From a virus: 64,000 nucleotides of DNA. Of this stretch, positions 20,548 to 57,706 are shown piece by piece (the first letter of the stretch is position 1; each line of letters starts with the position of its first letter). The stretch lies in the IMG/VR virus record IMGVR_UViG_3300043446_003110. The stretch is one strand, 5' to 3'. The notes beneath the pieces are model-generated. The model searched no databases. It was not told where the DNA came from and saw only the letters and a program-made list of their open reading frames with translations. The translations under genes and the position numbers were made by a program.

Positions 20548-22374
20548 TTATCTATTAATCTCGTATGTCCAATTAATTTGTAAAGAATATCTACCACTAT
20601 TTGGATCCCAACTTTCCTGCGGTGGACTAATAAAATATTTTCTAATTCCGGCCTCTTGGATTGGACTATATGCGTGAATTATAGAATTAATTTGACTTTT
20701 AAATGGCTCATTAAGACTCGGCTTAGATAAAACAGATCTGTTTCTTATTCTACTCGTCAGTGTTCCACCTGTACCTTCTGAGTAATATCTATCCATTACT
20801 AAATCTATATTTAAACTTCGTTGATATTCCGTTCTGCCACCAATATATTGTAATACTGGTCCAGTTTGTCTACCTAATACTGGTATTACAGCAAATACGT
20901 CGCCGGGATATGTATCACTGCACGTTATACTTTCTGAAAGCGCGCCGCTCACAATATTCTGTATTCTAGTATCATATTCTATATCATAAGTAATTTCACC
21001 AGTAAATTCGTTAGATGCTAAAGATATCGACAGTGGAATATAATTTAATGATAAATGCGTTAAAGATTGTGCGCGACGGAATAAATAGCAATTTGGACCA
21101 TATACCCCAGTATTGCTTATCTGATGCCATTTATATAAAGCATTTTGATATGATGTGTTTAGTGGGGCAAATCCATATTGAGTAGCAGTACTAGTATTAG
21201 ATCCTCCATATTGAGTAGAACCAGCGTGAACACTAGACAATCCTTTGATAGTACCATTTATATTTACTTTATGTATTGCGGTATCAGCACTCTTAGAAAC
21301 AGAAGTATTATAATTTTCATAAGAATTACCACTAGACAATAGCCATGTATCATTTAACGTAACTGTGCCAGCTGTAGTATCAATAGATTCTGTACGAAGA
21401 TGATTATATCCACCCCATATATCTTTTGCGATATTTAAAAATCCACTACCAAAATATGGTCCTAAACTATGTTCTGGAAATTGTTCATATCCAGTTGAGT
21501 TATTTGTTGAGGTATTATCTGTGTCTTTAAGTATATAGTTGTAAATATAACTTTTTGCTTGTTGCCACGCCTCTTTGCGCTTTATATCGGATGCAGTTCC
21601 ATAATACATAGTCCTACCTGTCGCACTAATGCTGCGCGTGAGTCTATATGTACGTCTAGAAGAAATATGATTGTCATCTAAATAAGTAGGATTTGCTACT
21701 GAAGTATTTGTGGTTCCATTTCCTTCGTCTACTTCTAAAGACCAATTTTCACTAAAGTCTTCTACGAAACCGCTAGCACTTAATGCCGTGGTCAAAGAAA
21801 TTCTATTTTCATTTCTGATTGGAGTGCCAGCCGCATCTACGGGTCGAGAAGTAGAATTTGTAAGTCCGTCAGAAATTATATTGTTAGAGTTGTCTAATAA
21901 AACTTCTGCGCGTAGATTGATTGTGTATTTACAATTAGTAACATATGGCCCCTCTTCAAAACTGATAGATTCAACAATAGGATAGAATTTCAATACGGGA
22001 TTATCTGACATAATAGAATCAGAAGCATTAGAAGCACTGGCTGGTAATAATTCTATTAATTGCCCATCTTTTTTGAAAACTTCTCTGATCAAATTTTGTT
22101 TGTGTATTATAGACCCCATAGCATTGTCTACATGCACACTTTCTTTAGGCGGTCTTTCGTAATCAGTTTTAAAACTTCCTGCGGGACTCGTAGGTGTATA
22201 TCCACCTTGTGTATAAAATGGGCTACCTTCATCTGGCAATATAGTACCATTTAAAACAATACTATAATAACTACCAAGCATACCAGATTTATTTCTGATA
22301 GCATTCTGTGTAATAGAAATAAATGGAGCTGGGCGAAGAACTAATGCGGTTCCATTATAATATATAGCTAGCAT
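20548..22374 (-). CDS. Tail-tip structural protein
   Basis: 608 aa, repeated beta-strand units (ESISF..G..KYTI; ESWD...GRYSLQINWTYE); lies among the tail-tip genes. Confidence 0.55.
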   Translation of the reverse strand: MLAIYYNGTALVLRPAPFISITQNAIRNKSGMLGSYYSIVLNGTILPDEGSPFYTQGGYTPTSPAGSFKTDYERPPKESVHVDNAMGSIIHKQNLIREVFKKDGQLIELLPASASNASDSIMSDNPVLKFYPIVESISFEEGPYVTNCKYTINLRAEVLLDNSNNIISDGLTNSTSRPVDAAGTPIRNENRISLTTALSASGFVEDFSENWSLEVDEGNGTTNTSVANPTYLDDNHISSRRTYRLTRSISATGRTMYYGTASDIKRKEAWQQAKSYIYNYILKDTDNTSTNNSTGYEQFPEHSLGPYFGSGFLNIAKDIWGGYNHLRTESIDTTAGTVTLNDTWLLSSGNSYENYNTSVSKSADTAIHKVNINGTIKGLSSVHAGSTQYGGSNTSTATQYGFAPLNTSYQNALYKWHQISNTGVYGPNCYLFRRAQSLTHLSLNYIPLSISLASNEFTGEITYDIEYDTRIQNIVSGALSESITCSDTYPGDVFAVIPVLGRQTGPVLQYIGGRTEYQRSLNIDLVMDRYYSEGTGGTLTSRIRNRSVLSKPSLNEPFKSQINSIIHAYSPIQEAGIRKYFISPPQESWDPNSGRYSLQINWTYEINR

Positions 22375-25300
22375 TATTTACCTCTTACACTTAAGTTAAG
22401 AACGTCGATTAGACTTCCTATCCCGCTAGAATATAAATTCAAATACTCTATAGAAGATCCAGATGCACATTCTGCGAATAAATTCAATCCAGATGGAGAT
22501 GCAGAAATATCACCGGATTTTACATAATTGTACAGTCCTAATGTATTATACACATATGCAGAATTTTCCACATCTATAATTAATGGTAATTGTGAACTTG
22601 GTGGTATATGGCCACAATCCACACGTAAAGAAAGAGAATCATCAACCAATTTTCCATATTGATAATGCCCATAAACAGATTCAATATATGGCCTATGTGA
22701 TATAAAGCCTTTTGGGGCAAAATCTTGTCCAGAAACTTCTATAAATATTTCGCCTTTTGACGTAGTTACTACAATTCCACTATTATAATATTTAACATTA
22801 TTACCTATATTAGAAAATTGTAGAGGAACTGTGGGATTATTATTAACATCTCTATATCCAAATACTTTTGCGGATATCCAAGCCCCAGTGCTTGGCAAAG
22901 AAGGCTTTTGTGATTTTAGCATGATGTCTTTTGCGTATGCAACACCAACATTTGTAACAGTCCCAGATGCAAAATTACATCCAGCAAATATACAATAATC
23001 TGCATCACTTCTGTATGGCTTAGTTGGCCTAGTCAAATAAACAGTTCTGCCAAATCTTTCTCCACTGGGTTGATCATGCAATGATACCACTTTTTCAACT
23101 AACTTCCAAGATTGTTGTTTATTTTCCCAATCTGAAATTTTATTTTCGTATAGATATATTGCACCCATATTGTGTTGATATGCGTCATTAATAGATAAAG
23201 AATCTCTAATGCCAGAATATCCTAAATCATATATATTTCTTTTTGGTATATCAAATTGAGGATTGAAATTTTTTCTGGCAAATGATCCTTGTGAATATAT
23301 ATTTTCATAATAACTATTATAACTATGGTTTGGAGCGCCAACAATGATGGTATCATATTGCATATCTACAGAATGACCAAATTGATCAGAATATGTATTT
23401 ATTCCGCTGAGTTGTCCTTTGAGTGATGATGGTTTTAATTTAGATGTTGCTAACCATTTGTTATTTATTGATTTATCAAACATGTATACAGCACCAGCAC
23501 CCCCATCATTTCCTAAACTAAGAGGAATGCCGCTATACCAAGGTGATAATGAATCTTCAGTAAATGCCGAGAATGGAGATCCAATTAATACTTTTTCACC
23601 GCGCACACATACTGAATATCCAAATAAATCTCCGGGATATCCAGATGGGAATTTGTCAAAATCAAGATAATCATATCCCTTTTCGTGTAATATAAGTGGT
23701 AATCCGCCTCCTATAGAAGCATCGTAATAAGTTTTCCCATCTATTACTCCACTAATTCTAGATGTAGCAGAATATTTGGTTTGACTAACTAAAAACCCGC
23801 TAATAAAAATGTTTTTTATATATGCACGAATTTTATCATCTTGTACATCTTCCCATGGTAATTCTGGTCGCTTAACATTATCAAATAAATATCTAGATTC
23901 ATAGGGATTAATTGCATTTAAGGGCGCATCAGATGAATTTCCAAAATTTTTATTAAGTCCTAATTCTGGAGAATTTAAATGATATTTGCTTGGACTTCCT
24001 CTTTGTGGAGAAATTATTTTATTGTAAACATCAAAGTGTCTACCATATTCTAAAGATGTAAATTCAGTTTCTGGATAAAGACTTCTTAAAAATTCATACG
24101 TATCTTGTGGAAGTCGATTGTCTTCTCCTAAAACATATCTACCTTGTAAAATACTTGAGTCAGTTATAACAGTTATTCTAGATCTGGCATAACCAGCATC
24201 AAATTGAGAAAATGTTTCCATCTGTTGTGCGGCAACAACTGGGCCATCTTCTATCAATTTATGTCCTAAGAATTGGCAACTTTTAGTACAGTATTTAGTA
24301 TTATCAGTACTTATACTTCTAATTACTTTAATAGTCTCTTTGTATTCTGGTTTTGCTTCTGATTCTATATAGTATGATACTCCAACCGGTATTGATTTAT
24401 TATTTGGAACAGCTTTTTGATATATTGGAATTAATGTACCAGATACTCCAATAAGTCTTACGCTCTTTGGCTGTCGGTCATTACTTAATCTTGCTCTTAC
24501 GCATGAAATATAGACACTAATATTATCAGTATCTCCAACCTGTAAATCAGCATAGCATGAACTATCACATTTTATAGTAGGAACGCTAGATCTAATATAT
24601 CTAGATCCATACGGTTGTCTGTCCGTATCTAATTCTACTATATCTCTAAGTATAATATCTGGATATGGAGAATCTGCAAATGCAGATGCATCTTCTACGT
24701 CGGCTGATAAATATTCATATTCATTTGGATTTTGAGAATCTGTAGTAATAAATAGTCTATATCCAGATCCGGGTAAAACTGGAAAGTTAATCTGAACTAT
24801 GCCGGGATTTAATTCCCAATTATTGCTGTTATATTCTCTTGGAATTTCATCGTATAGAGGCTTATCATAATAAATGAGTGGAACCGCACCTTCATTTTTT
24901 TTGAAAGCATACATTCCCATATATGGAGTAGTGCTAATAAAATAGTTCGTAGATTTACTCTTAGAAACATTTATGAAAGAATCTCCACCAACTTGATGAT
25001 CAGTGTTAACCCATAATAAACCAAAAAAGTGTTTGTGATATGAAAAATCATATTTTTGTATCAATTCTAATTGGATCCCTAGCAATGAGCATAAATTTTT
25101 GGCATGATTAATACCATCTATAGTATCTTCGGTAGTAATAACTAATTTTTTGTTTCCAGCTGACAACCAAGTACTTAAATTTCTCAATTGAGACTCTGAT
25201 ATCTCGCCGTTTATGTTTGGTAGCCAAGCAACATTATACTTGTTAAATAGTGTTGATACATTTAAGTCTACATTATTCCATGCATTCAACGCATCTCTCA

Positions 25301-28300
25301 ATAGTGAACGTTCATATCCGTCCACAAAAGATGTGCGACCATTCCAATTCAATTGTGCTATATTAGATTCACCAAACCTAGAACGAGATGAAGATACTAG
25401 ATTTTGATAAAATAATATGTTGTCATCATTAAAACCTTGTTTTAAATCGGCTTCAACTTTTACATTTGGTATAACAACAATTTTAGAACTAGTATTTTGT
25501 TTGTAAGAATATTCTAGAACAAGATAAATTTTATCTGATAATTCTTCTTTTTGTATATATGGAATAATATCAACTTTTGGAGTTGCTTTTGCCTGTAGTA
25601 CGCCACCAAGTTCATCAGATGGTTTGTAAAATAAGTTGGCATCTGTTCTGCCAGTTATATTATATTCTACAAAATTATAATCAATACCTTCTTCACTATC
25701 TAGACTATAAGAAAAATTAGCTTGATCATTGATAGGACTACCCAAGTCATAATATACCGTAGCTCCATCTGTTACGGTTTCATACTCTATTCTGATACCG
25801 GAAATAGCTGGAATAGCTGGATATATTATTTCTTGATCTACTTTTTCGGCAGCTGCTAATAATGGTATAGGTTCTTGATTCTTTGTTGGAGAATCTGGAG
25901 AATTATTTACGCTACAGTCTGGAACATAAGATCCAAAAATAAATGGCCAATTTTTTTGATAAATTACTGGAACTGAACCTCTAACTGTTTGTTTGCAACA
26001 GAGTTCATTCCATTCTGCTCTTAAATCACCATAATTTCTGAGTGGCATTTGACATTTAGTTTGAATCTGTACCTTTTCTGGTGACATCGGATCGCACAAT
26101 GAAACTTCTTCACATGGCATTTCCTCGTCGTAATCAAATACTATTTTTATATCTGCTACACCACTACCCCTAACTGGTGAACGTTTTATATAAGTTGAAG
26201 TAGATCCTCTTGGTATAAATGATGGAACTATATTATTAAATGTAGTATATCCATCTGGCAAAGATTCATATTGGTTTCTAGCCGGAACAATTCTCATATT
26301 TGATTTTAATCGTGCTAATAACTTGTTAATAATATCATTAGATTTAGCATAAATTCCACTAGCTTCCCATCTTGGATCATTGCCAACAAGAACTAAGTGC
26401 CTATCACCTAAAGCCAACCAGCTCTCTATACTTTCAAAAATAGTGTCACTTAACCTATCTTCGGCTGGGGTAATAATAAAAACTAATCCAGCTTCTCGGG
26501 GTATATTCAAATTTTCTTGGAATGGAGTTTTAGTAAAGTTTTTATCTACAAATATACCACTTAAATATCCAAAACATCCAGAGTCAGCAGTATTTGCACT
26601 AATATTTTCGTGTAAATTTCCAAAAGCACCGTATTCAATAGCAGTGCTATGTGGATAATATTTACGAGATTCAAATATATGGGCAGAACCGGCGTATAAA
26701 CTAGACGCCCATGAAGGTGTAATTTTTCCTGCTAAATTGCTATCTGGATCTGGATCTAAATATGTAGCAGAATAACTTTTACCGCCATAAGACCCATCAG
26801 TATAATATACATCAGTATCATTATATAGATTTAAGCTATCAGTTGGCGCACCAGCAACTACAACGCTACCGTCTTCATTTACATCTACGCTGTATCCTAA
26901 TCTCGCCGTAGGTGCATATGTATCTGTAATAAATTTCCAACTACCCAAAGCTTGAATATTACTATATGAAAAATTATGAACATTTTTGTATTCTTGTATG
27001 TCATTATCTAATCTGACAAAAAATTTATCTTCTTGATCCAAGGATAAATATAATTCATGTTTTGCTTTTATTCCCTGTGCGGCATTAGCATAATATTTTT
27101 CTAATTGTTGAAAATATTTCTGTTTTCTTTTACTTTCTACCCATGGTATTAACGCATCGTCAAACAGTCTTTCTCTAGCTTCATAATCTCTTTCATATAT
27201 TTTTACGGCTTGTGATATGTATGGAGATCCTATTGCAATTACTTCTCCATTGTCACTAATACTAACAGCATGACCAAATCTATCATAATATTCTGATGAA
27301 ATATTGGGGGATCTAATTTCTTGTATCAAATTCCATGCGCCACTTTCTTTCTCAAAAATATAAACCTTACCTCCACTGTCTGGTGGAATGTTAAAATTTT
27401 TGTCATACTTGTTGAATTGTCCAACATTAGTAGAAAATAATTTAGCTTGATTTTTTTGAACTAATTTTCCAGTGTCTAATACTTCATCTATTATATATTG
27501 AGACATTTCGATCCAATCTATGTCTCCTTCTGTCTCAAATTCTGCCACATAACCGGAAGCGGGGACTCCAAAAAAATCTTTGACACCACTAGAAAAAGTA
27601 TATTGTTTGTAAAAATCAATAAAATTGTCAATTGCTGGCTGCAAAGCTTCTTTTCCGCCAACCCCGTTGCTTCCATCGTAGGCAATTCCTAGTAATGGTG
27701 GCAATCCACTATTAATAGCAGTATTTGAATAAGGAAAAGCTTCTAAAAATCCAGATTTTATACCACTAAAAGTGTTTAGTATTGTTTCTTGTGATAGTGG
27801 ATATCCTTCATTTTTTTTGATTCGCTTGAGCGTGATAAATGATGGCATATCTGGAAATTGAGCGTCTGGCTCATTGGGATCATTGGTAACTGCATAAATC
27901 ACTATTTTAAGATCAAATCTTACTCTAGGAGTTGCAAAGTATTTAAATACAACATCTTTTGTATACAAATGCTTAAGAACAGTATCATATGTAAAATATA
28001 CCAGACTTTGTTTTATTATAACAGGTATTTCATGTTTGAATTCAGAATTATCTACAAATAACATTATACCAACAGATACTGGTGTTGGCTCGTCTTCTTC
28101 AAATGTACGTGTCCATCTAGCACCGACCCCGCCGACTACAACAATTTCTTGTCTATTTTCTCCTATAGATTTTATCTTATCATTGATTGAAACATCTACT
28201 GAATGACCGAACTGCCTTCCGTCTTGACCAACATGCCATGAAGTTTGAATTCCTTCAAAATTTGATGGTAAACCATTTATTTGAATTTTTTGTTCTATCC

Positions 28301-28904
28301 CATAATCTCCAAATAGTCCAGATGGTAATGTTAATTCTTTTTCAAGTATCCAAGATGATTTATAGTTATCTAATGGCCAATCTATTGTGTTTGGACGAGG
28401 ATTTCTACGATATAAGAATACTTTACCAGCATTTTCAAAAATAACTCCACCAGAAGTAACGGGAATTTTTGGACACCCAACAGCAAGAAGATCTTCTTTT
28501 GATGCTATTGATTTTGCAAATTCTCCACCTTGAATAGTGTTACTGTCTATTCTAAATCCTGAGTAATCAGAACTTATTTTATCATCTGGGTTTTTATTAT
28601 ATTCTACTTCTATGATTTCTGTTGGTATTTTTATTGCAGCTTCTGAACCAGATTTACCGGTTATATTAACAACGTAAGGAAGATTTGGAGCCAATCCGCT
28701 GTATTTTCTTATTCCATAAAAGTGTCCGCTGTACGAAAATGGTTCGTAGATAGTGGTGCCGTTTTCAGTATGCTTAAAACCACTAGCAAAAGAAAGATTA
28801 GTATATGTGTTCTTAGGACGAAATACTCCACCGTCAACACAAATTTCTGGATAATACCATTTAACACCATGAATATCAACTATGGCCTCTGTGCAGCGAC
28901 TCAT
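22374..28904 (-). CDS. FG-GAP (integrin-alpha-like beta-propeller) virion protein
   Basis: Seven FG..V...GxP-type repeats (EFAKSI, QFGHSV, RFGHAV, RLGYSV, LFGYSV, QFGHSV, RFGRTV), most followed by G.VY.F/Y strands. Confidence 0.8.
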   Translation of the reverse strand: MSRCTEAIVDIHGVKWYYPEICVDGGVFRPKNTYTNLSFASGFKHTENGTTIYEPFSYSGHFYGIRKYSGLAPNLPYVVNITGKSGSEAAIKIPTEIIEVEYNKNPDDKISSDYSGFRIDSNTIQGGEFAKSIASKEDLLAVGCPKIPVTSGGVIFENAGKVFLYRRNPRPNTIDWPLDNYKSSWILEKELTLPSGLFGDYGIEQKIQINGLPSNFEGIQTSWHVGQDGRQFGHSVDVSINDKIKSIGENRQEIVVVGGVGARWTRTFEEDEPTPVSVGIMLFVDNSEFKHEIPVIIKQSLVYFTYDTVLKHLYTKDVVFKYFATPRVRFDLKIVIYAVTNDPNEPDAQFPDMPSFITLKRIKKNEGYPLSQETILNTFSGIKSGFLEAFPYSNTAINSGLPPLLGIAYDGSNGVGGKEALQPAIDNFIDFYKQYTFSSGVKDFFGVPASGYVAEFETEGDIDWIEMSQYIIDEVLDTGKLVQKNQAKLFSTNVGQFNKYDKNFNIPPDSGGKVYIFEKESGAWNLIQEIRSPNISSEYYDRFGHAVSISDNGEVIAIGSPYISQAVKIYERDYEARERLFDDALIPWVESKRKQKYFQQLEKYYANAAQGIKAKHELYLSLDQEDKFFVRLDNDIQEYKNVHNFSYSNIQALGSWKFITDTYAPTARLGYSVDVNEDGSVVVAGAPTDSLNLYNDTDVYYTDGSYGGKSYSATYLDPDPDSNLAGKITPSWASSLYAGSAHIFESRKYYPHSTAIEYGAFGNLHENISANTADSGCFGYLSGIFVDKNFTKTPFQENLNIPREAGLVFIITPAEDRLSDTIFESIESWLALGDRHLVLVGNDPRWEASGIYAKSNDIINKLLARLKSNMRIVPARNQYESLPDGYTTFNNIVPSFIPRGSTSTYIKRSPVRGSGVADIKIVFDYDEEMPCEEVSLCDPMSPEKVQIQTKCQMPLRNYGDLRAEWNELCCKQTVRGSVPVIYQKNWPFIFGSYVPDCSVNNSPDSPTKNQEPIPLLAAAEKVDQEIIYPAIPAISGIRIEYETVTDGATVYYDLGSPINDQANFSYSLDSEEGIDYNFVEYNITGRTDANLFYKPSDELGGVLQAKATPKVDIIPYIQKEELSDKIYLVLEYSYKQNTSSKIVVIPNVKVEADLKQGFNDDNILFYQNLVSSSRSRFGESNIAQLNWNGRTSFVDGYERSLLRDALNAWNNVDLNVSTLFNKYNVAWLPNINGEISESQLRNLSTWLSAGNKKLVITTEDTIDGINHAKNLCSLLGIQLELIQKYDFSYHKHFFGLLWVNTDHQVGGDSFINVSKSKSTNYFISTTPYMGMYAFKKNEGAVPLIYYDKPLYDEIPREYNSNNWELNPGIVQINFPVLPGSGYRLFITTDSQNPNEYEYLSADVEDASAFADSPYPDIILRDIVELDTDRQPYGSRYIRSSVPTIKCDSSCYADLQVGDTDNISVYISCVRARLSNDRQPKSVRLIGVSGTLIPIYQKAVPNNKSIPVGVSYYIESEAKPEYKETIKVIRSISTDNTKYCTKSCQFLGHKLIEDGPVVAAQQMETFSQFDAGYARSRITVITDSSILQGRYVLGEDNRLPQDTYEFLRSLYPETEFTSLEYGRHFDVYNKIISPQRGSPSKYHLNSPELGLNKNFGNSSDAPLNAINPYESRYLFDNVKRPELPWEDVQDDKIRAYIKNIFISGFLVSQTKYSATSRISGVIDGKTYYDASIGGGLPLILHEKGYDYLDFDKFPSGYPGDLFGYSVCVRGEKVLIGSPFSAFTEDSLSPWYSGIPLSLGNDGGAGAVYMFDKSINNKWLATSKLKPSSLKGQLSGINTYSDQFGHSVDMQYDTIIVGAPNHSYNSYYENIYSQGSFARKNFNPQFDIPKRNIYDLGYSGIRDSLSINDAYQHNMGAIYLYENKISDWENKQQSWKLVEKVVSLHDQPSGERFGRTVYLTRPTKPYRSDADYCIFAGCNFASGTVTNVGVAYAKDIMLKSQKPSLPSTGAWISAKVFGYRDVNNNPTVPLQFSNIGNNVKYYNSGIVVTTSKGEIFIEVSGQDFAPKGFISHRPYIESVYGHYQYGKLVDDSLSLRVDCGHIPPSSQLPLIIDVENSAYVYNTLGLYNYVKSGDISASPSGLNLFAECASGSSIEYLNLYSSGIGSLIDVLNLSVRGK

Positions 28905-31900
28905 TGTTTACAACCTCCGTAGCAGATCAAATCCGTTCCTCTTATGTTATCATCAGAATCAACATATGCATAAACATTATCCACAGATGTAATACCTTGA
29001 CCAATATTATCGCTATCCCACTTAATAGTTGCGCTGGTAGAAGCTAATGAATCTGATATTGGATAATTGAGTGTAACCAGCGGTAAATTACCAGACGCAT
29101 TAAATAAATCTGGAATGAATCCAGAAAGGTGTAGCCCAATTGATCCGCTGGCATTATTTACTATTACATCATTATTATACACATATAATGGCATAGTTGA
29201 AAATGGGTATGCATTTATAGATTTATTAATACCTTTAATTCTAAGAGATATATTATCATCTATAATCACAGATCCAGTTGGACTTAATGCGACGAAATTC
29301 AAGGAATTGCTTGCACTAAATGCCATGCCGCTGGTATATAGTGGTAAGGTGCTTTCAGTCATGAACTCTCCACTAACATATAGCGACATACCCTTGAGTG
29401 GAGATGATCCAAATAGTCCAGCGAATATTTGTTCACTACTATCAACAACGCCATTGCCAATAGTAAATAAATTTAGTGTTTTCGGTGGTACATAAAATCC
29501 ACTGCTATCAAGAAAAATATTTAGCCTATCATTTAGTGGTATGGGTAAATGACCCTTAGTGACCAGATTTATATAATTTGGACTAGCTTCAATTACCGTG
29601 CCATCTTCTGGAGCAAACAAATTCATTATTCCAAATTGATAATATGCTCCACTCACATGTAGAGATAATGGAGTGACGGTGCTGGAGTATTCACCTAAAA
29701 AGATAGCATTATCAGATCTAATATTAGTATTATGTATTTTAATCTTAGATTTATATGGTGCGCCAGATGGATATACAACATCATATTGTAAAAACATTTG
29801 ATTAATGTCATCTACAAAATATGTTTCTTTGAATTCTTTGCTATATATTTCTTCAGTAAAAATAGCCCATGGTTCAGATTTATCAAGAATATCATCAAAA
29901 GTTAATCTACTAGTAATCTTCCTTATGCAACCAGATGGCTCTAGATAATGAATTGATCTATTGACAAGTCCAAGAGACTTGCTTTTCATATATGGGTTAT
30001 CTTTTGTTGGCGTATACAAACTGATTATTAATTTTGCGCCAACATTGTTATCTGGCCATATAAAGTCATTATTTGTTTCATGTTCTATTACCGTGTCAAC
30101 AAATAAAGCTTTTTCTTTGAAATTGTATCCTTTTGGTAAATTTTTAGAAATTCTTGGAGCTATAGCATGGAATCTATTTATATCTAAATCATCTATATTA
30201 GATAGATCTAGTCTTAAAAAGTCATTTTCAATTTGAGTATGGTATGAAACTCCAGATAAATATATGTTTGATGGCAATAGTTTATCAGTATATTGAGAGT
30301 AACCAGATCCATGGTGATTTAAACTAAAAGTAATGTAGTCTTTACCTTCTCTCTTAGTATAACGATCAAATGATGGAGAAAATTGACATATTTTGAATGC
30401 ACCAAGTTTCCATTTTGAAATATCATCGTCAATGTTTTCACCAAGCACTTTGTAAGAATCAAAAAAGTCTTTAGCTGTAATTTGATTAATGAATCTATCT
30501 GGATTTGATTGTAAGATATTACAAAAAGCATTGGAGCATCCAATTTCGTGCAAAAACATTGGAAGGGCCGGATAGGTTGTAAAGTTTTGAGAAAAACCTA
30601 TACGTAAAGTTGGATTATTAGATAAAATATATGTTTCTATTGATTCTGATTCTGCTCGTAAATATTCAAAAGATAAATTTGAACTATTATCAGTATAGAG
30701 TTTGTATTTATATGATAGTCCATCATCATTATATGTAATTAAAATAGGTATGGGAAATTGATAATTTGATATTGGTATGGTATCTGTTATTGTTACAATA
30801 GTATCATCTGATTTTCTTATTTTCAGTTTTAATATACCGTTTTCGCAGATTAACGCTAAAGAATATTTGTTATTATTTTCATAAGATAATATAACGCAGT
30901 TATTCAAATCATTTGTAGAGACTTTATCTGGACTAAATCTAATAAATAGTGCAAATCCTAAGATATTGTTTGCATTGCCGCCATCGTCAAATGAGTTATT
31001 ATTTAATGCATAAAATTCTAATGAATTTGCAGATGATATTCTAGCAGATCTATCAAAGGCATCGAATATATTACTTGACCAAGAGGTAGATTTGTAATCA
31101 GTAGTAATGCCATCTATCAATTGATCTGATGAATACCTCCAACCAAAATTAGAAAGTATATTTAAAGATGTTGCAGATTGTCCAATTAAATTATTTTTAT
31201 GATCATATATGTCAGCATCATCTATATTAGTAAAATCTACATATGATGTTAAAAATGGAGTATCAGACTGTTTATGATTAAATGAAAAATCAAATTCATA
31301 ACGAGAAAAGTCACCACCACTAAAAATATCTCCAGTATTTCCTCTCCATCTCCTAGCTAGATTAGATGACAAGTAATCTGGACTTGAAAAACCTATTGGT
31401 ATACCACTTACTTGCTTGTCGCTTGTAATTGTTCCTTGACCTTCTGGAAACAAAATAATAGATTTTTGAATAGCATTTTTATTAGACGGGCTTCCAATAG
31501 TATGCATCATCAACGCATTGGCTGGCTTGTAATATACATTTAAGCTAACATAAGATATTGATGCTCCACTTGGTATTGGACAAATATCTAAATATAGGTG
31601 TTCAAAGTATGGACTTAATGAATATTTTGTGTATCCTAATTTTCGTGGATTTTGATAAATCTCTAGTGGTACAATATATTCTTTGAACTCTGTACTATCT
31701 ACAGTTACTAAATTGCTGACAACATAATGATCACCAAGGGGAGAAACATCATAATTAAAATAATCTGAAAAATCAGATATGCTACTATTTGATAAACCAT
31801 AATTGTTATTTAATAAACCAGAGACATTTGGAACATTATTTTGGTTAAATACTAATGAACCACTATTTTGTAAGAATCCCCCAATTGGGCTTGTAACGTA

Positions 31901-45607: not shown

Positions 45608-46120
45608 CTATAGATTAATATTAATTGCTTCTAATTCTTCTACTGAAGTTGCGTTATTGATTAATTGCTTGATTGAAGCATAAGAATTACTTAAAGATGA
45701 TCGGGCCTGACCGTATTGTAACATGAGCATCGTTAAATCTTGTAAATTCATAGAGTGAGATTGGCCGTCAATGTCAACTATACTGACGGGATCTGTGATA
45801 CCCATAGCACTAGCTTCTTTAGCTAATGTAAAAGCTCCGTTTAGTAATGCCACATCAGAAATATCTATACCTAAATAATATCCTTCTGGAGTTTGCCAAC
45901 CAGCATCTATTTTAATTTTCCAATTATTATCTAGAAGTTGTATTTTTTCTAATTTAGATTTTGTTAAGGGCCATGTATTTACTAAATTATTAATTTCATT
46001 TAGTTGACTTTCATTTGGAAAATTATTATTATAATAACTTATCTCAATACCATCAGCCGATTCAGATAAAGATTCTATTGGTAGGATAGAATTAATCTTA
46101 TTATATAGCGTATATAGCAT
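45608..46120 (-). CDS. DUF4376-like fibre-associated protein
   Basis: C-terminal IVDIDGQSHSMNLQDL...KQLINNATSVEELEAI; TAATG overlap with the upstream fibre gene. Confidence 0.6.
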   Translation of the reverse strand: MLYTLYNKINSILPIESLSESADGIEISYYNNNFPNESQLNEINNLVNTWPLTKSKLEKIQLLDNNWKIKIDAGWQTPEGYYLGIDISDVALLNGAFTLAKEASAMGITDPVSIVDIDGQSHSMNLQDLTMLMLQYGQARSSLSNSYASIKQLINNATSVEELEAININL

Positions 46121-50129: not shown

Positions 50130-50143
50130 AATCTATTCCTTTT

Positions 50144-51538
50144 TTAGTTATACAAATATTTTGAAATGCAACCTACATTGTAAGTATCTCCATAAAATTC
50201 GATTGGCGGATCGGGACATATACAGTACTCACCGTTGCAATCGGACTGATAGGTTTTGTAAAAACCAAATATGCCTTCTGGTCCTTGATTAGTTGTCCAT
50301 ATATATATACACGATTCTGTTACGCACGGATATGGGGTTGTGCTGGTTGAGGTCGAAGTACTAGTCGAGGTCGAAGTACTAGTCGAGGTCGAAGTACTAG
50401 TCGAGGTCGAAGTACTAGTCGAGGTCGAAGTACTAGTCGAGGTCGAAGTACTGGTTGAGGTCGAAGTGCTAGTGGAGGTAGTTGTTGTAATTGAATAACA
50501 AGGAACAGTTATTATATCTTTAACAGTACCTGTAACGTGGATATTAAAGCAATCGCATCCATCAAGACAATTATTATCGAATAGCAAATGTACGTTTTGG
50601 AATTCAATCCATTGATATAAACAAGAGCCGCAAGGGTAGTCCCAAGGAGGATTAGTAGTGGATGTACTTGTCGTTGGATCAACTATAATTGTGGGACAAA
50701 TAAAGTCATAAACAACTACGCCCAAAAAAGTGTTAAGTTCAGCATTAACGATCTTATATGTTCCATTCAGATTAGAATAATTTCGACAAGTTATTTGAAT
50801 TATGTCTCCAATACGAAGATTCAATGGAACAAATGGATTTAAAGAATAAAGAAAACCACGTTGTGGATTTGGAAAATTTCTACTATTAATATAAGCCAGT
50901 TTAAAATCACCCCACCCTCTTCCGCCCGTACCTAGCACTCTTATAAAATCATTTCCACCATCCTCGTATTGCCAACTGTCAAAACAAGCATAATTAGGTG
51001 GTATAGTAGTTGTGGTTGTAGATGTTATAGGAGAAATAGTTGTAGATGTTGTAGTAGGTCTATCTTTTACGCAAGGTATTTTGACAATATAGGATGAATT
51101 TAAACTAGTATTTGCCCCGCGACAACATGGATCAGAGTAAAAGTCGCATAAACTTTTTATTGATACGGCAAATTTTTTCTCTGTAGATATATCAATATTA
51201 TCTGTTTTTATGGATATTTTATCTTTTGTTATTGAATTTATATTTTGAGATCCAAGATATTCATCTGTAACATAATCATAAATAGAAATTTGGATATTAT
51301 TTTTTAGATTATGATTTGATCCACTACCCCAATACAATTCGAATCCAAGAATATCAGAATCAAAACTTTGTTTGCTTGTCGTAGTAACAAATTTTTGACC
51401 GCTGGAAACAATGCAAGTGATATTATGTACTAATTTTAGGTCAGTAGTTTTGTCGCCGTGGATAGCCATCAAGCCAAGGCCATTGGCTTGGTATTTAGTT
51501 CCAGATGGTATAAAAATTGATCCGCATGAGCAATTCAT
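50144..51538 (-). CDS. Cys-rich protein with mucin-like Thr/Ser tracts
   Basis: 464 aa; TTTSTT linkers and a ~50-residue (TS)n tract separating small Cys-rich modules. Confidence 0.75.
   Translation of the reverse strand: MNCSCGSIFIPSGTKYQANGLGLMAIHGDKTTDLKLVHNITCIVSSGQKFVTTTSKQSFDSDILGFELYWGSGSNHNLKNNIQISIYDYVTDEYLGSQNINSITKDKISIKTDNIDISTEKKFAVSIKSLCDFYSDPCCRGANTSLNSSYIVKIPCVKDRPTTTSTTISPITSTTTTTIPPNYACFDSWQYEDGGNDFIRVLGTGGRGWGDFKLAYINSRNFPNPQRGFLYSLNPFVPLNLRIGDIIQITCRNYSNLNGTYKIVNAELNTFLGVVVYDFICPTIIVDPTTSTSTTNPPWDYPCGSCLYQWIEFQNVHLLFDNNCLDGCDCFNIHVTGTVKDIITVPCYSITTTTSTSTSTSTSTSTSTSTSTSTSTSTSTSTSTSTSTSTSTSTSTSTSTTPYPCVTESCIYIWTTNQGPEGIFGFYKTYQSDCNGEYCICPDPPIEFYGDTYNVGCISKYLYN
50342..50485. 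repeat. 18-bp tandem repeat (ACTAGTCGAGGTCGAAGT), about 8 units, encoding TSTSTS on the - strand
   Basis: Five perfect copies at 50360-50449 flanked by degenerate copies. Confidence 0.95.
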
Positions 51539-51548
51539 AATTATACCT

Positions 51549-53678
51549 TTAGCAATCTTCTGATGGAATTACAATTACGCATGGTGGTGGACCTATTTCT
51601 ATTGGATAAGATACATATGGATCTTCTACAATATATACATCAACACACAAGTATTCAGTATTGAGTTTATATATTGATAAATTAGTATTAATATAATTTT
51701 TAATCTCTGAAAAAGATAATGATGATGCTATTTTGATAGCCTCTTTCATATTTGCATCAACTCTATATATACTATTAGTAGGTATATTTTTGTAATAAAT
51801 TGTTGAATCTTCGTCAAAAACAAAACAATACAAATTCATTGGATTGTTAGGAGTAGGATTAAGACAACTATATTCTACGTTTATTGTAGAGCCTAGACAA
51901 CGATCTTGATCCATAATTATTGCCGGTGTTTCATTTATAGTTGTACCATTTGTTATATCGCACCTCAATCCCGGTCTGCAATCATATACAAATTCGATGG
52001 TAGCGTCCATTGGTATTTTTGGTTCATACCAAGATTCCTCATTAGAAAATTGATATACACCTCTAATATAGGAATCACAATCCCCAAGATATTGTCCGCT
52101 AGTTTGGTAAGAAAAGCCAAATTCATATGTTCCACTACTGCATACTTTATTAAATCCTCCATTTTCTATTGGTATGCTATAGTTAGGACAGCCCCTCAAT
52201 TCGTGGGGATTTTTTAAATAAGTATTTTTATTATAAAGTCTGTCAACAACAATCCAATCTTCATATGCCCACCTATAACGTATTGGTAATGTAAATCCAA
52301 TAGATGCTTTATATCCAATACCATCTTGAGTTGATGGAGATTGTATAATTCTAATAGAATATTTAGCTGGATATTTATATTCATGATCCTGCAAAGAATC
52401 ATCTGTGTATACTTCTTGATAACAATTATTGTCATCGTATTCATCGAAAGCAATTAAATACGTTGTTGGTGGATCATTAGTACTGCTCCACACGCATGGA
52501 TTAATATGTGTATCGCTTAAAGATGAATTAAACAACCAATCATTTGGTCCTCCTAACCTATCAAATATATATGTGCCACTAAAAATAGGATCTGTAGGAA
52601 TAACTAATTTTATTCTATTAGATACTCTAAATGTGGTTCGTGGATTTGCACATAATAATCCAGACGCCTCCGGTGGAACAAGTGGGATATGATAGCTAGG
52701 AGGATCAGAAGGAAGAACAGGTTTATCGTAATAATATGGAGTAAAAGGAATATCTACTGAATAAGTTTTACTAATTCTATTTAACATATCTCCAGTGGGG
52801 GCATAACAATCATCATTATCAGCTACTTCTATACTATCCGAGCAATTACAATCTGAAATTTTCCAAGATGTATTAGATAAAATAGGTGAACATGTTGTCG
52901 AAGTCGAAGTGCTAGTCGAGGTCGAAGTGCTAGTCGAGGTCGAAGTGCTAGTCGAGGTCGAAGTAATGGGCGGTGCAGTAGTAGAAGTACTAGTCGAGGT
53001 CGAAGTGCTAGTCGAGGTCGAAGTGCTAGTCGAGGTCGAAGTGCTAGTCGAGGTCGAAGTGCTAGTCGAGGTCGAAGTAATGGGCGGTGCAGTAGTAGAA
53101 GTACTAGTCGAGGTCGAAGTACTAGTCGAGGTCGAAGTACTAGTCGAGGTCGAAGTACTAGTCGAGGTCGAAGTACTAGTCGAAGTCGAAGTACTGGTTG
53201 AAGTCGAAGTACTGGTCGAGGTGGAAGTGCTAGTTGAGGTCGAAGTAGTAGTACATGCTAATACCTCAACGTATATTACAAATGTATCTGAATCCAGTAC
53301 TCTTTTTTGTAAATCTAGCGTATTTATAGTTACTGTATAGTATCTACTAGTTGCGCCAGCATTTAAAAAATTAAAAAACAATTCACTATTGTTTATTTTA
53401 AAGAAAGATCTATCTGGACCAGACAATGAAAAATTAAAATAATCACATGTAGAATTTACTACAATGTCGGCTACTTTTATGTCTGTTGAGTCTAAAATAT
53501 CAAATTTAAAAGTTGTTTTTTTTATTTGAAGATTACTTGCATAACAATCTGTTTGCGTTTCAGAAAGTGCAAAAAAATCTGTATCTATCTTTACTGGGGG
53601 AAGTGTTGTAGTTATGGGTTCAGCATATCTCACATACGGCAATGGATATTTAAAGCATTGGTCAGGTGCGCGCCCCAT
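51549..53678 (-). CDS. Cadherin-like domain + long (TS)n tract + Cys-rich protein
   Basis: FSLSGPDRSFFKINNSELFF...YTVTI is cadherin-like; ~120-residue T/S tract interrupted twice by APPI. Confidence 0.75.
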   Translation of the reverse strand: MGRAPDQCFKYPLPYVRYAEPITTTLPPVKIDTDFFALSETQTDCYASNLQIKKTTFKFDILDSTDIKVADIVVNSTCDYFNFSLSGPDRSFFKINNSELFFNFLNAGATSRYYTVTINTLDLQKRVLDSDTFVIYVEVLACTTTSTSTSTSTSTSTSTSTSTSTSTSTSTSTSTSTSTSTSTSTSTSTSTSTSTTAPPITSTSTSTSTSTSTSTSTSTSTSTSTSTSTSTSTTAPPITSTSTSTSTSTSTSTSTSTSTSTTCSPILSNTSWKISDCNCSDSIEVADNDDCYAPTGDMLNRISKTYSVDIPFTPYYYDKPVLPSDPPSYHIPLVPPEASGLLCANPRTTFRVSNRIKLVIPTDPIFSGTYIFDRLGGPNDWLFNSSLSDTHINPCVWSSTNDPPTTYLIAFDEYDDNNCYQEVYTDDSLQDHEYKYPAKYSIRIIQSPSTQDGIGYKASIGFTLPIRYRWAYEDWIVVDRLYNKNTYLKNPHELRGCPNYSIPIENGGFNKVCSSGTYEFGFSYQTSGQYLGDCDSYIRGVYQFSNEESWYEPKIPMDATIEFVYDCRPGLRCDITNGTTINETPAIIMDQDRCLGSTINVEYSCLNPTPNNPMNLYCFVFDEDSTIYYKNIPTNSIYRVDANMKEAIKIASSLSFSEIKNYINTNLSIYKLNTEYLCVDVYIVEDPYVSYPIEIGPPPCVIVIPSEDC
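52911..53246. repeat. 18-bp tandem repeat (RCTAGTCGAGGTCGAAGT), 16 units in three blocks separated by two identical 24-bp inserts
   Basis: Blocks 52911-52964, 52989-53078 and 53103-53246; insert AATGGGCGGTGCAGTAGTAGAAGT at 52965 and 53079. Confidence 0.95.
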
Positions 53679-53695
53679 AATTTATCCAATCTATA

Positions 53696-56600
53696 TTATG
53701 AATTACAACAAGAGCAAGATGTATCCTCTGAACTAATCCATATTGGTTTATACTCACTATTGACTTGAGCAGCTATAACGTATGCACCAGTTTGAACAAC
53801 TAAGCTTGTATCGCGATTAGTTATGAATATAACCCCAGAATCGGCCCATAGATAATCTTTGGGTATCATAATACCGCTTGTTTTTTGACCAATTGATGGC
53901 GCTGGCAACCCAGTGGGCATAAAACCTTCAATAAACAGAGTTTCTATGTTTTTTGCTATTTTTATACCGCTATTTCCCAAATCTATACCACTATTAGCTA
54001 ATAATGTATTTGTCTGTATTGGCTTAGTGCTTCCAATATATGTTCCATCAGCGAACTGTATATTGCCTTTGATTTGAAGATTTCCATTTAATCTCGCGTA
54101 TGGTTGCGGAGGTAAATCGGAAAGTTGTCCGCTAGTTGGGAACCAAAAATAGTCATTATACTTCACATTACTATTGGTTATGATGGTTGGATATCTCCAA
54201 TCGCCAGCATATACCGAAGACGCAGCATTATGATCTAATGTTAATAAATTGCTTGATTTATTACCAATAAAAGTGAAAGTTAAGGTATTTTCTGGATAAT
54301 CACTGCCGCCACTATCTATAATTTCAATAACATTAGACTTAATGCATAAGCCTTCTGTATTATCATTATTATTTATATATAGTTTTCCACCACTTGGTAA
54401 TATGAGTCGCTTATCATTGTTAGTGGGTCCAAGCTTACCTTCTAACAAAACAATGTTTTCAGTATATCCAAGAGCAAAATTATAAGATCCACTTACAGAA
54501 TTGCCAACCCCATTATTTCCTATAATGATATTTCCACTAGTATTGATTAATTCTGACTGTCTGTTAAAAGATAGATTACCAATAACAATATTATTGTATG
54601 AATTCACTAGTCCGCTACCGGCGTATTTACCAATTATTAAATTATTGTTACCACTAACCAATGTATCTAAAGCATTTGTGCCAATTGATATATTTCCAGA
54701 GCCAGATCTGAATCGATATAACGATCTATATCCATAAGATGTATTGTCTATTACTGCGTCATTGATATTGAATCTTCCAGATGGAGACTCATATCCAGCA
54801 AATGTATTTCCACTTGAGTTTGTAAATACTGCTCTGCCATCTATGCTATCATTCTTATTTACAACTAAATTGAAAGAATTTCCAGAACTGTCCATGAAAA
54901 CAAGATTATTGTGTTGCTTGGCATGGAATTGATCATTTTTAATATTGTATATCTTACCATAACCACTTGATGGTATAACATTTATATCAGTAATGTATTG
55001 ACTATCTTTCAGTGATATAGCTGGAATATTGCGCATTCCAGAGTGACCAATAGTAATGACTTCATTAGTTATACCGCTTGAGAATATTCCCATTGTTCCA
55101 CTATCAGTTATTCTGATAGCGTTGGTCTTGAGTTCATTTTTGTATATATTAAAATCAGCAATACCACTATTATTTAAATAAGCAATTTCTAGCCCGCTAG
55201 ATAAACAATTATTGCCACCCAATAATTCGATAGAAGCTTTATAGTAACCGTTGCTTTCGGCGGTGAATCTAGCAACACAATCATTTTTAGATCTCACATT
55301 GAAGATGGTATTTGGCAAAACATATTCTGTATATTCTGGTATATTTGTAACAGAAAGAACAGCACCATCGGTTGAGTCTTTCATCAAAATCAAACCGTTT
55401 ACAAAATTAGATGTATTGTTATATGAACCAAAAACTAATCTATCATTCAGCCGGGTATTGTTAAAATTATCAATATATTTGATTTCAAAACCACAGAGTT
55501 TATCTTTGTTATTATTAGTAATATCTTTTATTCTAGATTTTGTTCCAGTTAAAAATCTTTGACTAACATTAACACCTGACTCTAATGAAGAAATAGATAG
55601 GCTATAATCATTAGCTTCACCAGAATTAGAAATAAAATTTACATTTCCTATGCCAGCTATGTGGCCCTCTGATAAACTTGGATTAATATTTAATATTTTT
55701 TTACGAGAAATATATGAACGTCCAGTTTTGAAGAATAAACCAAAACAATCTCCATTATTCAAAGATGATATATCATAGGATATAATATTATTTGTTTGAA
55801 TATATCTATCACTTGGCACTTTAAAATTTATATTGCTATACCATGTGGCATTGAAATCTCCAGCAAAACATGGCACACCTTCTGATTGTGGTTGAAAAGA
55901 AATTTTATATTCTTTTAAACTAAAAACATCTGGGCTAGATTGATAAGTAGTTGTTGACTTTAAGAGTATACCGCCATCATTTAATTGATCGTCACTTAAT
56001 ATTGGCATTCCACCATTATTTGTTGCAAGATAAAGTATTTTATTGGTATAAACTGAGCTTTGTAGAGTTATTAATTCATTGATTGTGGCTCTGCCAGTTA
56101 CAACTAAATCTTTAAAATATCCAGAACACCAAGAGTATACAGGTGAACCAAAATTGTATTTTTCAGTAGTACTTGGATAAATGCTATTATTTGAAATAAG
56201 CAATGAAGTACCACTGGAAAAAATGGATGATAGATTGCTAAACTCAATAGATTTTGAAAGATATAAATTTTTCCATGGATATAAACTGTGTCCTAAAGTG
56301 CTAATATCGCCGCCAGAGGGCAAAATATTTCCACCAACATGTAATATTCCATAATTATTTAAAATTCTTGTGCCAATTCCAAGTTTTATGCTAGATAGAT
56401 CGCCATAAATCAGTGGCATCCACCCGTCGCCATGTGGATTATCACATATATGTTGCTCATCTACTGGATGATAACCAATAAACAATTGATGGCTGGTATT
56501 TTTTGATGTATAGTATCCAGCGCCATGACCTATAGCTATATTGCCTTGGCCAGACTTATTGTTATTTAAAGCAAAATTTCCAATACCAATATTGAGATGA

Positions 56601-56992
56601 CCAACTGTATTGCCGCCTAATGCATTGTAACCTACTCCAATATTTCCTTCTCCATACACATTACAGGATAAGGATTGAGATCCAACGGCGGTATTTTTTG
56701 AGCTTTGATAGCTTGATCTTAGAGCATAATTTCCTATAGCAGTATTGTCGGAACTAGTAGATCCAACCGTAGTTTTGAAATTTTCTAAAGCGGATTGACC
56801 AACTACAGTATTACCGGTAGGAAATGTGGCAAAGTTTAGACTTTTTAAGTCATTTGAAAGAGTAAGATTATGTATAGAATCTACAATATCTATAAGATTA
56901 TGTCTAATATCATACGGACTTATTTGACCATATGACTGATCAGAAATTTCTGCGTTGATATTATTAAGAAGCTGGGACTTGCTTAATATCAT
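53696..56992 (-). CDS. Long fibre protein with YadA-head-like beta-roll repeats
   Basis: Two blocks of 14-residue N(T/I)x(I/V)G..AL repeats (NTAIGNYAL, NTAVGSQSL, NIGVGYNAL; NISIGTNAL, NLIIGKYAG). Confidence 0.75.
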   Translation of the reverse strand: MILSKSQLLNNINAEISDQSYGQISPYDIRHNLIDIVDSIHNLTLSNDLKSLNFATFPTGNTVVGQSALENFKTTVGSTSSDNTAIGNYALRSSYQSSKNTAVGSQSLSCNVYGEGNIGVGYNALGGNTVGHLNIGIGNFALNNNKSGQGNIAIGHGAGYYTSKNTSHQLFIGYHPVDEQHICDNPHGDGWMPLIYGDLSSIKLGIGTRILNNYGILHVGGNILPSGGDISTLGHSLYPWKNLYLSKSIEFSNLSSIFSSGTSLLISNNSIYPSTTEKYNFGSPVYSWCSGYFKDLVVTGRATINELITLQSSVYTNKILYLATNNGGMPILSDDQLNDGGILLKSTTTYQSSPDVFSLKEYKISFQPQSEGVPCFAGDFNATWYSNINFKVPSDRYIQTNNIISYDISSLNNGDCFGLFFKTGRSYISRKKILNINPSLSEGHIAGIGNVNFISNSGEANDYSLSISSLESGVNVSQRFLTGTKSRIKDITNNNKDKLCGFEIKYIDNFNNTRLNDRLVFGSYNNTSNFVNGLILMKDSTDGAVLSVTNIPEYTEYVLPNTIFNVRSKNDCVARFTAESNGYYKASIELLGGNNCLSSGLEIAYLNNSGIADFNIYKNELKTNAIRITDSGTMGIFSSGITNEVITIGHSGMRNIPAISLKDSQYITDINVIPSSGYGKIYNIKNDQFHAKQHNNLVFMDSSGNSFNLVVNKNDSIDGRAVFTNSSGNTFAGYESPSGRFNINDAVIDNTSYGYRSLYRFRSGSGNISIGTNALDTLVSGNNNLIIGKYAGSGLVNSYNNIVIGNLSFNRQSELINTSGNIIIGNNGVGNSVSGSYNFALGYTENIVLLEGKLGPTNNDKRLILPSGGKLYINNNDNTEGLCIKSNVIEIIDSGGSDYPENTLTFTFIGNKSSNLLTLDHNAASSVYAGDWRYPTIITNSNVKYNDYFWFPTSGQLSDLPPQPYARLNGNLQIKGNIQFADGTYIGSTKPIQTNTLLANSGIDLGNSGIKIAKNIETLFIEGFMPTGLPAPSIGQKTSGIMIPKDYLWADSGVIFITNRDTSLVVQTGAYVIAAQVNSEYKPIWISSEDTSCSCCNS

Positions 56993-57004
56993 TTTAAGTT
57001 CCAG

Positions 57005-57706
57005 TTATTTTAGACTGATTTCTAACGAATTACTATCAAATCTTATATTATCTCCTAAAAATACATATCGTGGATTTGCTAACGGTGCATACATCAATAA
57101 TTTGCCAGAACCAACAGTGCCATGGTCAACTATTGCAATGCCAGAAACCCAGCCCCATTCAGTCAATGCTGTATCAAATACAAGTTGATTTTTATTTCGA
57201 ATAAATCCATTACCTTCATAATCTTGATACATAGACTTAACTAATACACCCGAGTTGAATGAATTAATTGCATTTGGAGCATAAAATTTAACAGAAGGAA
57301 ATTCTGCAAATTGATATTCTGTACTCGTTTCTGCTCCACCGGCAGCTTTACTAACGGTATTGGCTACCGTTGAACTAAGATAGAGTGGATAAAAATATGA
57401 TGGAGTATTGTCGTGCCTTCTTCCAGAAACGCTATATGCTGTTGCGTTATCTAAACCAACAAGATTCCAAGTAGCATCTCCGTTAGAAGCTGGAGGCCCA
57501 AGAGAAATACGCTTATAATTTGTTGGAACCCAATCGTATCCACTATAAACTCCAGATGGCAATTCCAAAATAGTTTCACCAGTGTCAGAATCTCTAGGCA
57601 CACCGCTAGTTAAAGCAATTGCTATTGTGGCTGGTCTGGGAAAAGCAGTATTTCTAAAGAGGTGACTTAGAAGACCAGACTCAAGATAATCCGATAGTGC
57701 GGCCAT
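57005..57706 (-). CDS. Virion structural protein (collar/fibre-base type)
   Basis: LSDYLE..LL.H.FR...IAL, NYKR, WG.VS..AI.D....G.LL.Y is a widespread phage structural domain. Confidence 0.65.
   Translation of the reverse strand: MAALSDYLESGLLSHLFRNTAFPRPATIAIALTSGVPRDSDTGETILELPSGVYSGYDWVPTNYKRISLGPPASNGDATWNLVGLDNATAYSVSGRRHDNTPSYFYPLYLSSTVANTVSKAAGGAETSTEYQFAEFPSVKFYAPNAINSFNSGVLVKSMYQDYEGNGFIRNKNQLVFDTALTEWGWVSGIAIVDHGTVGSGKLLMYAPLANPRYVFLGDNIRFDSNSLEISLK

Follow-up and report, generated by a model that had tools for sequence, protein, structure and literature searches.

Why does one dipeptide, Ser-Gly (SG), recur in a series of virion proteins of an uncultured aquatic phage that are otherwise unrelated to each other? 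The DNA in question is a stretch of 64 kb from the IMG/VR virus record IMGVR_UViG_3300043446_003110 (hereafter the window), which contains a glycosyltransferase (GT) cluster on the plus strand and a long virion operon on the minus strand. An initial annotation had noted that SG is about 2-3 times more frequent in six of the virion proteins than their composition suggests, and had proposed the dipeptide as a dispersed acceptor motif for the phage GTs. We analysed SG in these proteins, in their relatives and in phages with fewer or no GTs, and on balance we prefer, by a modest degree of confidence, a structural cap or turn motif over sugar-attachment sites as the explanation of the excess.

Over-representation of Ser-Gly in virion proteins

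The six proteins (2176, 1530, 1098, 616, 233 and 323 amino acids (aa)) were chosen after the fact. Their SG numbers as counted in the initial annotation were exact (35, 24, 28, 15, 8 and 8, respectively), and so were the 23 of 35 pairs followed by a hydrophobic residue in the 2176-aa protein and the six Gly-Ser (GS) pairs in the 616-aa protein. The ratio of observed to expected SG (O/E) amounts to 2.24, 2.23, 2.12, 2.23, 3.73 and 2.25 in the same order, which places the supposed two- to threefold excess at 2.1-3.7 per protein. Shuffling of the residues (5000 shuffles per protein) gave p <0.001 in five proteins and 0.016 for the 323-aa protein. Pooled over all six, 118 SG pairs were found versus 52.0 expected (z 9.1), making SG the most over-represented of the 400 dipeptides, with the next one at a z of 3.5. 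GS is present exactly as expected (52 versus 52), so that SG and GS occur at 118:52. TG, NG, KG, PG and GP are depleted in the pooled proteins: NG occurs 28 times versus 42.7 expected and has an O/E of 0.46-0.58 in the four largest proteins, and TG lies at 0.4-0.8 in the large SG-rich proteins. DG, at about 1.0, is not depleted. The SG O/E is 0.73 for the tape measure (2134 aa), 1.08 for the remaining proteins of the window and 1.34 for the whole genome. Of the controls quoted earlier, 15 SG in the tape measure, two in the capsid and none to three in each GT4 were found again, while the scaffold, said to have one, has two in the 155-aa scaffold-like protein.

Several trivial causes were ruled out. 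Local Gly/Ser-rich patches do not account for the excess, as an expectation based on local composition (sliding 60-residue window) is about the same as the global one (16.4 versus 15.6 for the 2176-aa protein) and GS has an O/E of 1.0; this correction for composition, proposed as a check in the initial annotation, leaves the SG O/E at about 2.1-2.2 and not near 1. Nor does a cause at the DNA level, since SG is written with at least 16 different hexamers, none of which is dominant (TCTGGA 22, AGTGGT 19, AGTGGA 17, TCTGGT 14, TCTGGC 14 and others); the bias is thus one of amino acids. Before Gly, the Ser codon TCA is nearly absent (3 of 118 SG pairs), although it makes up 162 of the 661 Ser codons of the six proteins. 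In TCA-GGN an AGG string resembling a Shine-Dalgarno sequence would arise, and avoidance of internal sites similar to ribosome-binding sites may be the reason. Tandem or internal repeats and shared domains were excluded as well, because the sites are dispersed and the six proteins are mutually dissimilar, the sole similarity being about 50 N-terminal residues of the 323- and 1098-aa proteins. As no domains are shared, the excess cannot be one repeated module. Pro, Val and Asn are the typical residues before SG in the six proteins and Ile, Val and Leu those after it; acidic flanking residues were not found.

A seventh SG-enriched protein with a length of 324 aa was absent from the earlier list and is enriched in relatives, too. 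The virion proteins of 1564, 1138, 608, 709, 464 and 855/1034 aa have an O/E of 0.8-1.5. The suggested contrast between outward-facing and internal proteins was not borne out: several large presumed distal-tail proteins belong to the non-enriched set, and together with the unlisted 324-aa protein they leave such a split unsupported. Most of these virion proteins are without a family or PDB match (no PDB sequence match was found for the 1564-, 1138-, 616- and 324-aa proteins), so their location in the particle is not assignable by annotation.

Conservation of the Ser-Gly sites in related phages

In many relatives (P0013-P0050; G002, G003, G007, G017-G019) the 1530- and 2176-aa proteins are one chain of about 3700-4500 aa encoded by a single open reading frame (ORF), from which it follows that the giant protein encoded after the tape measure gene is split in the window phage and its nearest relatives. 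The two genes overlap by 4 bases in the window phage.

SG-rich orthologues persist in relatives at about 30-60% identity. In the four relatives that were fetched whole or nearly whole (G001, G002, G003 and G007) the SG O/E is 2.7-4.1 for the orthologues of the Gp80-like 233-aa protein, 2.1-2.3 for those of the 1098-aa protein, 1.9-3.5 for the 323-aa, 1.7-3.0 for the 616-aa (1.7-3.4 over all relatives examined) and 1.6-3.5 for the 324-aa protein, and 1.9-2.7 for the giant protein. Capsid, portal and the tail proteins downstream of the giant protein are near or below 1 in these genomes, and the tape measure ranges from 0.73 to 1.43, with the highest value in G003.

A large protein collection yielded 58 homologues of the 2176-aa protein, many of them fusions of about 3700 aa, and in every one of them the SG O/E is 1.5-3.0. 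Homologues with less than 45% identity keep 53% of the SG pairs of the query, compared to 18% of all dipeptides, 32% of other xG pairs and 12% of other Sx pairs, and in distant homologues the Ser of SG is conserved in 57% of cases versus 31% for other Ser residues. There is no excess of newly arisen SG: lineage-specific pairs have an O/E of 0.64, the same as the control dipeptides GS, NG, DG and SN (0.5-0.65). Shared sites number 38 per sequence for SG, versus 15 for GS and 13 for PS. Sites that are old and fixed in position account for the whole SG excess. When 33 distinct sequences of the giant protein were aligned with the 2176-aa protein of the window, 88 Ser columns proved strongly conserved; in 30 of them a conserved Gly comes next, and both Ser codon families are in use in 16 of the 30, which shows that selection has long acted on Ser itself.

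Substitutions and predicted structures

When a conserved SG column of the giant-protein family holds a residue other than Ser, this is most often Asn (21%) or Asp (17%), followed by Thr (12%), Glu (11%) and Ala (5%); at other conserved Ser columns the order is Ala (17%), Thr (15%), Asn (14%) and Asp (8%). The avoidance of Ala and the preference for Asn and Asp, but not for Thr, are what one expects of a residue that caps or shapes a turn by hydrogen bonding, and they fit an acceptor of O-glycans less well.

The AlphaFold model of the 233-aa protein has a mean confidence (predicted local distance difference test, pLDDT) of 93.2. According to the DSSP assignment of its secondary structure, SG is located at the start of a helix (position 10), just after a strand (34), at the start of a strand (51) and in a two-residue hairpin (55), and the remaining pairs are inside strands (94, 152, 188) or just before a strand (200). 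In this model the SG contexts are therefore predicted to be not one kind of loop. The best fold match is the fiber I protein gp80 of podophage GP4 (8JOU), followed by neck proteins. The model of the C-terminal 487 residues of the 2176-aa protein (pLDDT 62) is a weak indication at most.

In GP4 gp80 and 15 other GenBank homologues, three of six recurrent SG sites are mostly occupied by Asn or Thr, a fourth by Gly, Ala or Asp, and the fifth often by SG itself, while the partner position is often not Gly. Related roll-type fibres of small aquatic podophages have a like bias in which Thr takes the role of Ser, with a TG O/E of 1.8 in HTVC111P and 2.1 in Venkman and an NG O/E of 0.3 and 0, respectively.

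SG-rich and SG-poor lineages

We found 80 IMG/VR loci with a Gp80-like gene, many of which also carry the neighbouring gene for the 1098-aa protein. The SG O/E values of the two proteins are correlated (Spearman 0.60, 38 distinct pairs); as the genes are adjacent, linkage can explain this correlation. Among full-length orthologues of the 1098-aa protein, SG-rich lineages have 637 pairs versus 285 expected (pooled O/E 2.23) and SG-poor ones 94 versus 128 (0.73), at a similar Ser and Gly content. In the poor lineages, TG, GG, EG, NG, AG, KG and other pairs stand where the rich ones have SG, so that often the Gly survives and the Ser does not. One SG-rich subclade is nested among poor lineages, and its SG pairs fall in those columns that are also SG in the main rich clade. 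The NG O/E in this family is 0.54 in SG-rich and 0.66 in SG-poor lineages. No IMG/VR relatives were found for P0060, a representative of the SG-poor type, and a search for Gp80 loci with P0143 by itself yielded just two short contigs.

Only one SG-poor lineage is represented by long contigs (G017, G018 and G019, which are 81%, 61% and 41% complete). Its 616-, 323- and 324-like proteins stay SG-rich, and the giant protein has an O/E of 1.4-1.8. The lineage carries the 556- and 384-aa GT4 and is without the 331-aa GT4, the GT2 of the cluster and the methyltransferase. The reduced GT set and the SG-poor state represent one evolutionary event, seen on incomplete contigs.

Glycosyltransferases and alternative acceptors

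In total the genome has four GT4 and four GT2 matches, that is eight GT-family matches in 161 kb. GT2/GT4 matches outside the window are located at C1:14271-15300, 99742-100020 and 119151-119567 of the genome (G000). Of 17 related contigs, 16 carry GT4 genes, among them all six that are complete; the comparison of phages with and without the GT cluster that the initial annotation proposed thus has no GT-less member inside the group. T4, T5 and SPO1, which have no GT4, show a genome-wide SG O/E of 1.05-1.16, and their fibres range from 0.4 to 1.7 without significant enrichment except for one SPO1 protein (2.15). NG is at 1.0-1.3 in T4 and T5. The cyanophage S-RSM4 is without a GT4/GT2 match and has five large structural proteins with an SG O/E of 1.8-2.6. 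We downgraded it as a clean GT-less counter-example because GS (1.3-2.0) and GG are raised as well; with SG:GS at about 1.3 the effect is weaker and more symmetric.

Gp80-like proteins offer a further comparison, as 14 of the 16 GenBank phages that have one are without a GT4/GT2 match. Pooled over such phages, the Gp80-like proteins contain 36 SG versus 20.6 expected (O/E 1.74), with SG at none to two of the six recurrent sites. The SG-rich 161-aa Gp80 type belongs to the GT-bearing group of the window phage. SG enrichment exists without GT4/GT2, yet it is clearly stronger and more asymmetric in the GT-rich group. This contrast comes from one group and is hence confounded with ancestry. In the Pelagibacter phage HTVC111P, a 31.6-kb podophage (L221), a gene for a 'putative glycosyl transferase' lies directly downstream of the tail-fibre gene (MN698245.1, 24562-27878), and the N-terminal domain of the fibre matches the 1098-aa protein of the window.

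The 709- and 464-aa proteins, whose genes follow that of the 1098-aa protein immediately downstream in the operon, have Cys-rich domains with perfect (TS)n tracts between them that reach 54 residues and are flanked by TTAPPI-like linkers. Similar tracts are present in G001, G002, G007 and G017-G019; none were found in G003, T4, T5 or SPO1. The tracts are likely mucin-like linkers and the most obvious candidates for O-glycosylation. They are similar to the Ser/Thr-rich tracts of serine-rich-repeat adhesins, which GT4-type enzymes modify. With these more conventional candidate targets for the GT cluster, there is no need to invoke SG as an acceptor.

Organization of the genome and the virion operon

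The genome is a single contig of 161,058 bp with direct terminal repeats and a G+C content of 35%, and the window is the reverse strand of genome bases 28514-92513. A search of GenBank for a near-identical phage found no close relative; the best GenBank match of the capsid protein is that of Bacillus phage G with 24% identity. The virion operon comprises genes for the portal-like, scaffold-like and capsid proteins, the Gp80-like 233-aa protein, the fibre-like 1098-aa protein and the two (TS)n proteins, several unknowns and the 2134-aa tape measure, followed by the proteins of 1530, 2176, 608, 112, 1564, 1138 and 240 aa. Divergence within this one virion module is uneven, as the capsid is 82-94% identical across relatives and the tail and fibre proteins only 30-60%. 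The features are listed in Table 1.

Table 1. Features of the window, with observed versus expected SG where a pair of numbers is given
Feature	Position	Strand	SG content or remark
GT cluster: three GT4 (PF00534), DUF6564, GT2 (PF00535), FkbM-type methyltransferase	195-8014	+	Supposed modifying machinery
608-, 112-, 1564- and 1138-aa proteins downstream of the giant protein, presumed distal tail/baseplate	12116-22374	-	O/E 1.1-1.3
1564-aa protein of this group	15541-20235	-	
2176-aa protein after the tape measure, FG-GAP_2 repeats	22374-28904	-	35 vs 15.6
1530-aa protein, N-terminal half of the giant protein in relatives	28901-33493	-	24 vs 10.8
324-aa virion-module protein	43499-44473	-	6 vs 2.7
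616-aa virion protein, without family match	46120-47970	-	15 vs 6.7
323-aa protein, C-terminal match to a tail-fibre PHROG	47979-48950	-	8 vs 3.6
Two Cys-rich virion-module proteins (709 and 464 aa) with (TS)n tracts	50144-53678	-	Not enriched
1098-aa fibre-like protein, N-terminal domain resembling tail-spike and virion structural PHROGs	53696-56992	-	28 vs 13.2
233-aa Gp80-like protein (PF23140)	57005-57706	-	8 vs 2.1; best fold match GP4 fiber I (8JOU)
Capsid protein	57819-58826	-	2 SG
155-aa scaffold-like protein	58854-59321	-	2 SG

Weighing of the possible explanations

The reading that we hold to be somewhat better than even is that the excess marks ordinary cap and turn positions. In seven beta-rich virion proteins that are not paralogous, about 100 Ser-Gly sites, ancient and fixed in position, would each place a small hydrogen-bonding residue before Gly, at strand ends, in tight hairpins, in bulges within strands or at helix starts, corresponding to capping of the ST/Asx type followed by a flexible Gly. 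Ser would have become the standard choice of the phage group at positions for which Asn, Thr, Asp or Gly serve in related proteins elsewhere, and we infer that this Ser acts unmodified through its hydrogen-bonding side chain. The fixed sites, the Asn and Asp substitutes, the mixed structural contexts, the partial enrichment in phages without GTs, the non-enriched virion proteins and the better acceptors nearby favour structure. Why Ser should be preferred to Asn or Thr is left without explanation by this reading; since NG is depleted in the same proteins, one may speculate that labile Asn-Gly is avoided in long-lived aquatic virions. A number of observations weigh against a structural origin. 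Seven unrelated proteins of one group have Ser in preference to Asn, Thr and Asp, and the fibres of T4, T5 and SPO1 are without an SG bias. In sister lineages the SG O/E of the 1098-aa and Gp80-like orthologues is 0.4-1.0 at the same columns, often with Gly retained and Ser exchanged for Thr, Gly, Glu, Asn, Ala or Lys, and a quick maximum-likelihood tree requires at least three changes of the SG state. In five lineages (L023, L027, L035, L041 and L046) orthologues of the 1564-aa protein are SG-poor (O/E 0.1-0.4, 1-4 pairs versus 8-11 expected), and these are exactly the lineages with the most SG-rich giant protein (2.7-3.0). A pure fold requirement does not predict such lineage patterns, which make the strongest case for something that acts on SG as a class.

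That something could be glycosylation, with SG, or the Ser that starts a short loop between strands, as acceptor for soluble phage GTs which would O-glycosylate the virion proteins in the host cytoplasm before assembly. The eight GT matches and the presence of GT4 in every complete relative are in line with this, as is the fact that both the enrichment and the SG:GS asymmetry exceed those in the GT4/GT2-less phages; moreover, the varied polar residues that replace Ser before a retained Gly in SG-poor 1098-aa lineages imply that Ser is not needed for the fold. We nevertheless consider it unlikely. Thr is not favoured at SG columns, Asn, Asp and Glu are favoured despite not being O-glycosylatable, newly arisen SG shows no excess, and in the 233-aa model some pairs belong to a helix or to the interior of strands. 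Enrichment is absent from several large virion proteins, the (TS)n tracts offer conventional acceptors, and the Gp80-like homologues in phages without GT4/GT2 and several proteins of S-RSM4 are still above expectation. The absence of the 331-aa GT4, the cluster GT2 and the methyltransferase from the SG-poor G017 and G018 would fit a loss of the modifying enzymes, but this co-variation concerns one lineage with incomplete contigs, whose 616-, 323- and 324-aa orthologues are SG-rich despite the reduced GT set. A variant to which we assign a similarly small probability is that Ser before Gly at strand-loop junctions is recognized as a structural motif in the manner of Aah/TibC, that different GTs serve different virion modules, and that the SG-rich and SG-poor alleles of the neck-fibre pair (Gp80-like and 1098-aa) track the gain and loss of particular GTs. 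If so, no glycosylation code readable from sequence would have been described before on the particles of tailed phages. Quite unlikely in our view is chemical or proteolytic durability of long-lived virions, where Ser would replace Asn (fast deamidation) or Asp (isomerisation) before Gly and SG would be a stable stand-in for NG and DG instead of a motif for recognition. NG is depleted in exactly the SG-rich proteins and in the fibres of aquatic podophages (O/E 0-0.5), in contrast to T4 and T5, and where an SG column lacks Ser, Asn and Asp are found most often; NG is, however, low in SG-poor lineages too, so its avoidance alone does not yield SG enrichment, DG is not depleted, and other virion proteins of the same particles are without an SG excess. 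A historical accident, in which ancestral proteins happened to be SG-rich, slow evolution kept them so and the six were picked post hoc, would account for an excess confined to inherited sites and for the linked values of adjacent genes. It is already disfavoured by the conservation statistics and in our estimation very improbable: SG serines are conserved far above other serines and through switches between the Ser codon families, the bias is common to seven non-paralogous proteins, the pooled z is far beyond what picking 6 of 42 proteins could give, and the whole-genome O/E exceeds that of the control phages. What probability remains is left to causes that we have not thought of.

If the structural reading is true, the phage group provides an unusually clean case in which a single dipeptide flags caps and turns in virion proteins unrelated to each other, useful for modelling giant proteins of unknown fold and otherwise ordinary. 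If SG were instead a sequon, virion glycosylation would be predictable from sequence in widespread uncultured aquatic phages, and the eight GT genes would gain a target. In both cases, glycoproteomics would find natural controls in the (TS)n tracts and in those proteins that have SG-rich as well as SG-poor alleles.

Comparison with known systems

Our data do not support the parallel with proteoglycan xylosylation that was drawn in the initial annotation. Proteoglycan xylosylation needs nearby acidic residues and a eukaryotic xylosyltransferase of the GT14 type; the likeness is limited to the Ser-Gly dipeptide, as the neighbours of SG are hydrophobic rather than acidic and the enzymes here are of the GT4 and GT2 families. 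The closest functional precedent for a glycosylated SG would be the heptosylation of AIDA-I and TibA by Aah and TibC, in which many dispersed Ser acceptors of a beta-rich surface protein are likewise modified by a soluble cytoplasmic glycosyltransferase. This system also accepts Thr, and no enzyme of the BAHT type (Aah/TibC family) was identified among those of the phage, which match GT4 and GT2.

Phage-encoded GTs decorate capsid and tail proteins. In serine-rich-repeat adhesins (GtfA/GtfB, GT4) and in mycobacteriophage virions the acceptors are Ser/Thr-rich tracts or tails. Virion glycosylation of mycobacteriophages is mentioned in PMC11256854. The counterpart of such GtfA/GtfB-type tracts in the window phage would be the (TS)n tracts of the 709- and 464-aa proteins and not the dispersed SG.

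The closest structural description is that of Ser, Thr, Asn or Asp caps and turns followed by Gly. ST/Asx turns, N-caps and G1 beta-bulges are general motifs in the classifications of Milner-White and Richardson. Like the SG sites, they have Ser, Thr, Asn or Asp immediately ahead of Gly, occur in hairpins and bulges as well as at the ends of strands and the starts of helices, are conserved in position, and exchange these four residues for one another while avoiding Ala. While these motifs normally use all four residues, Ser is almost exclusive in the phage proteins, TG and NG are depleted, and SG is doubled protein-wide.

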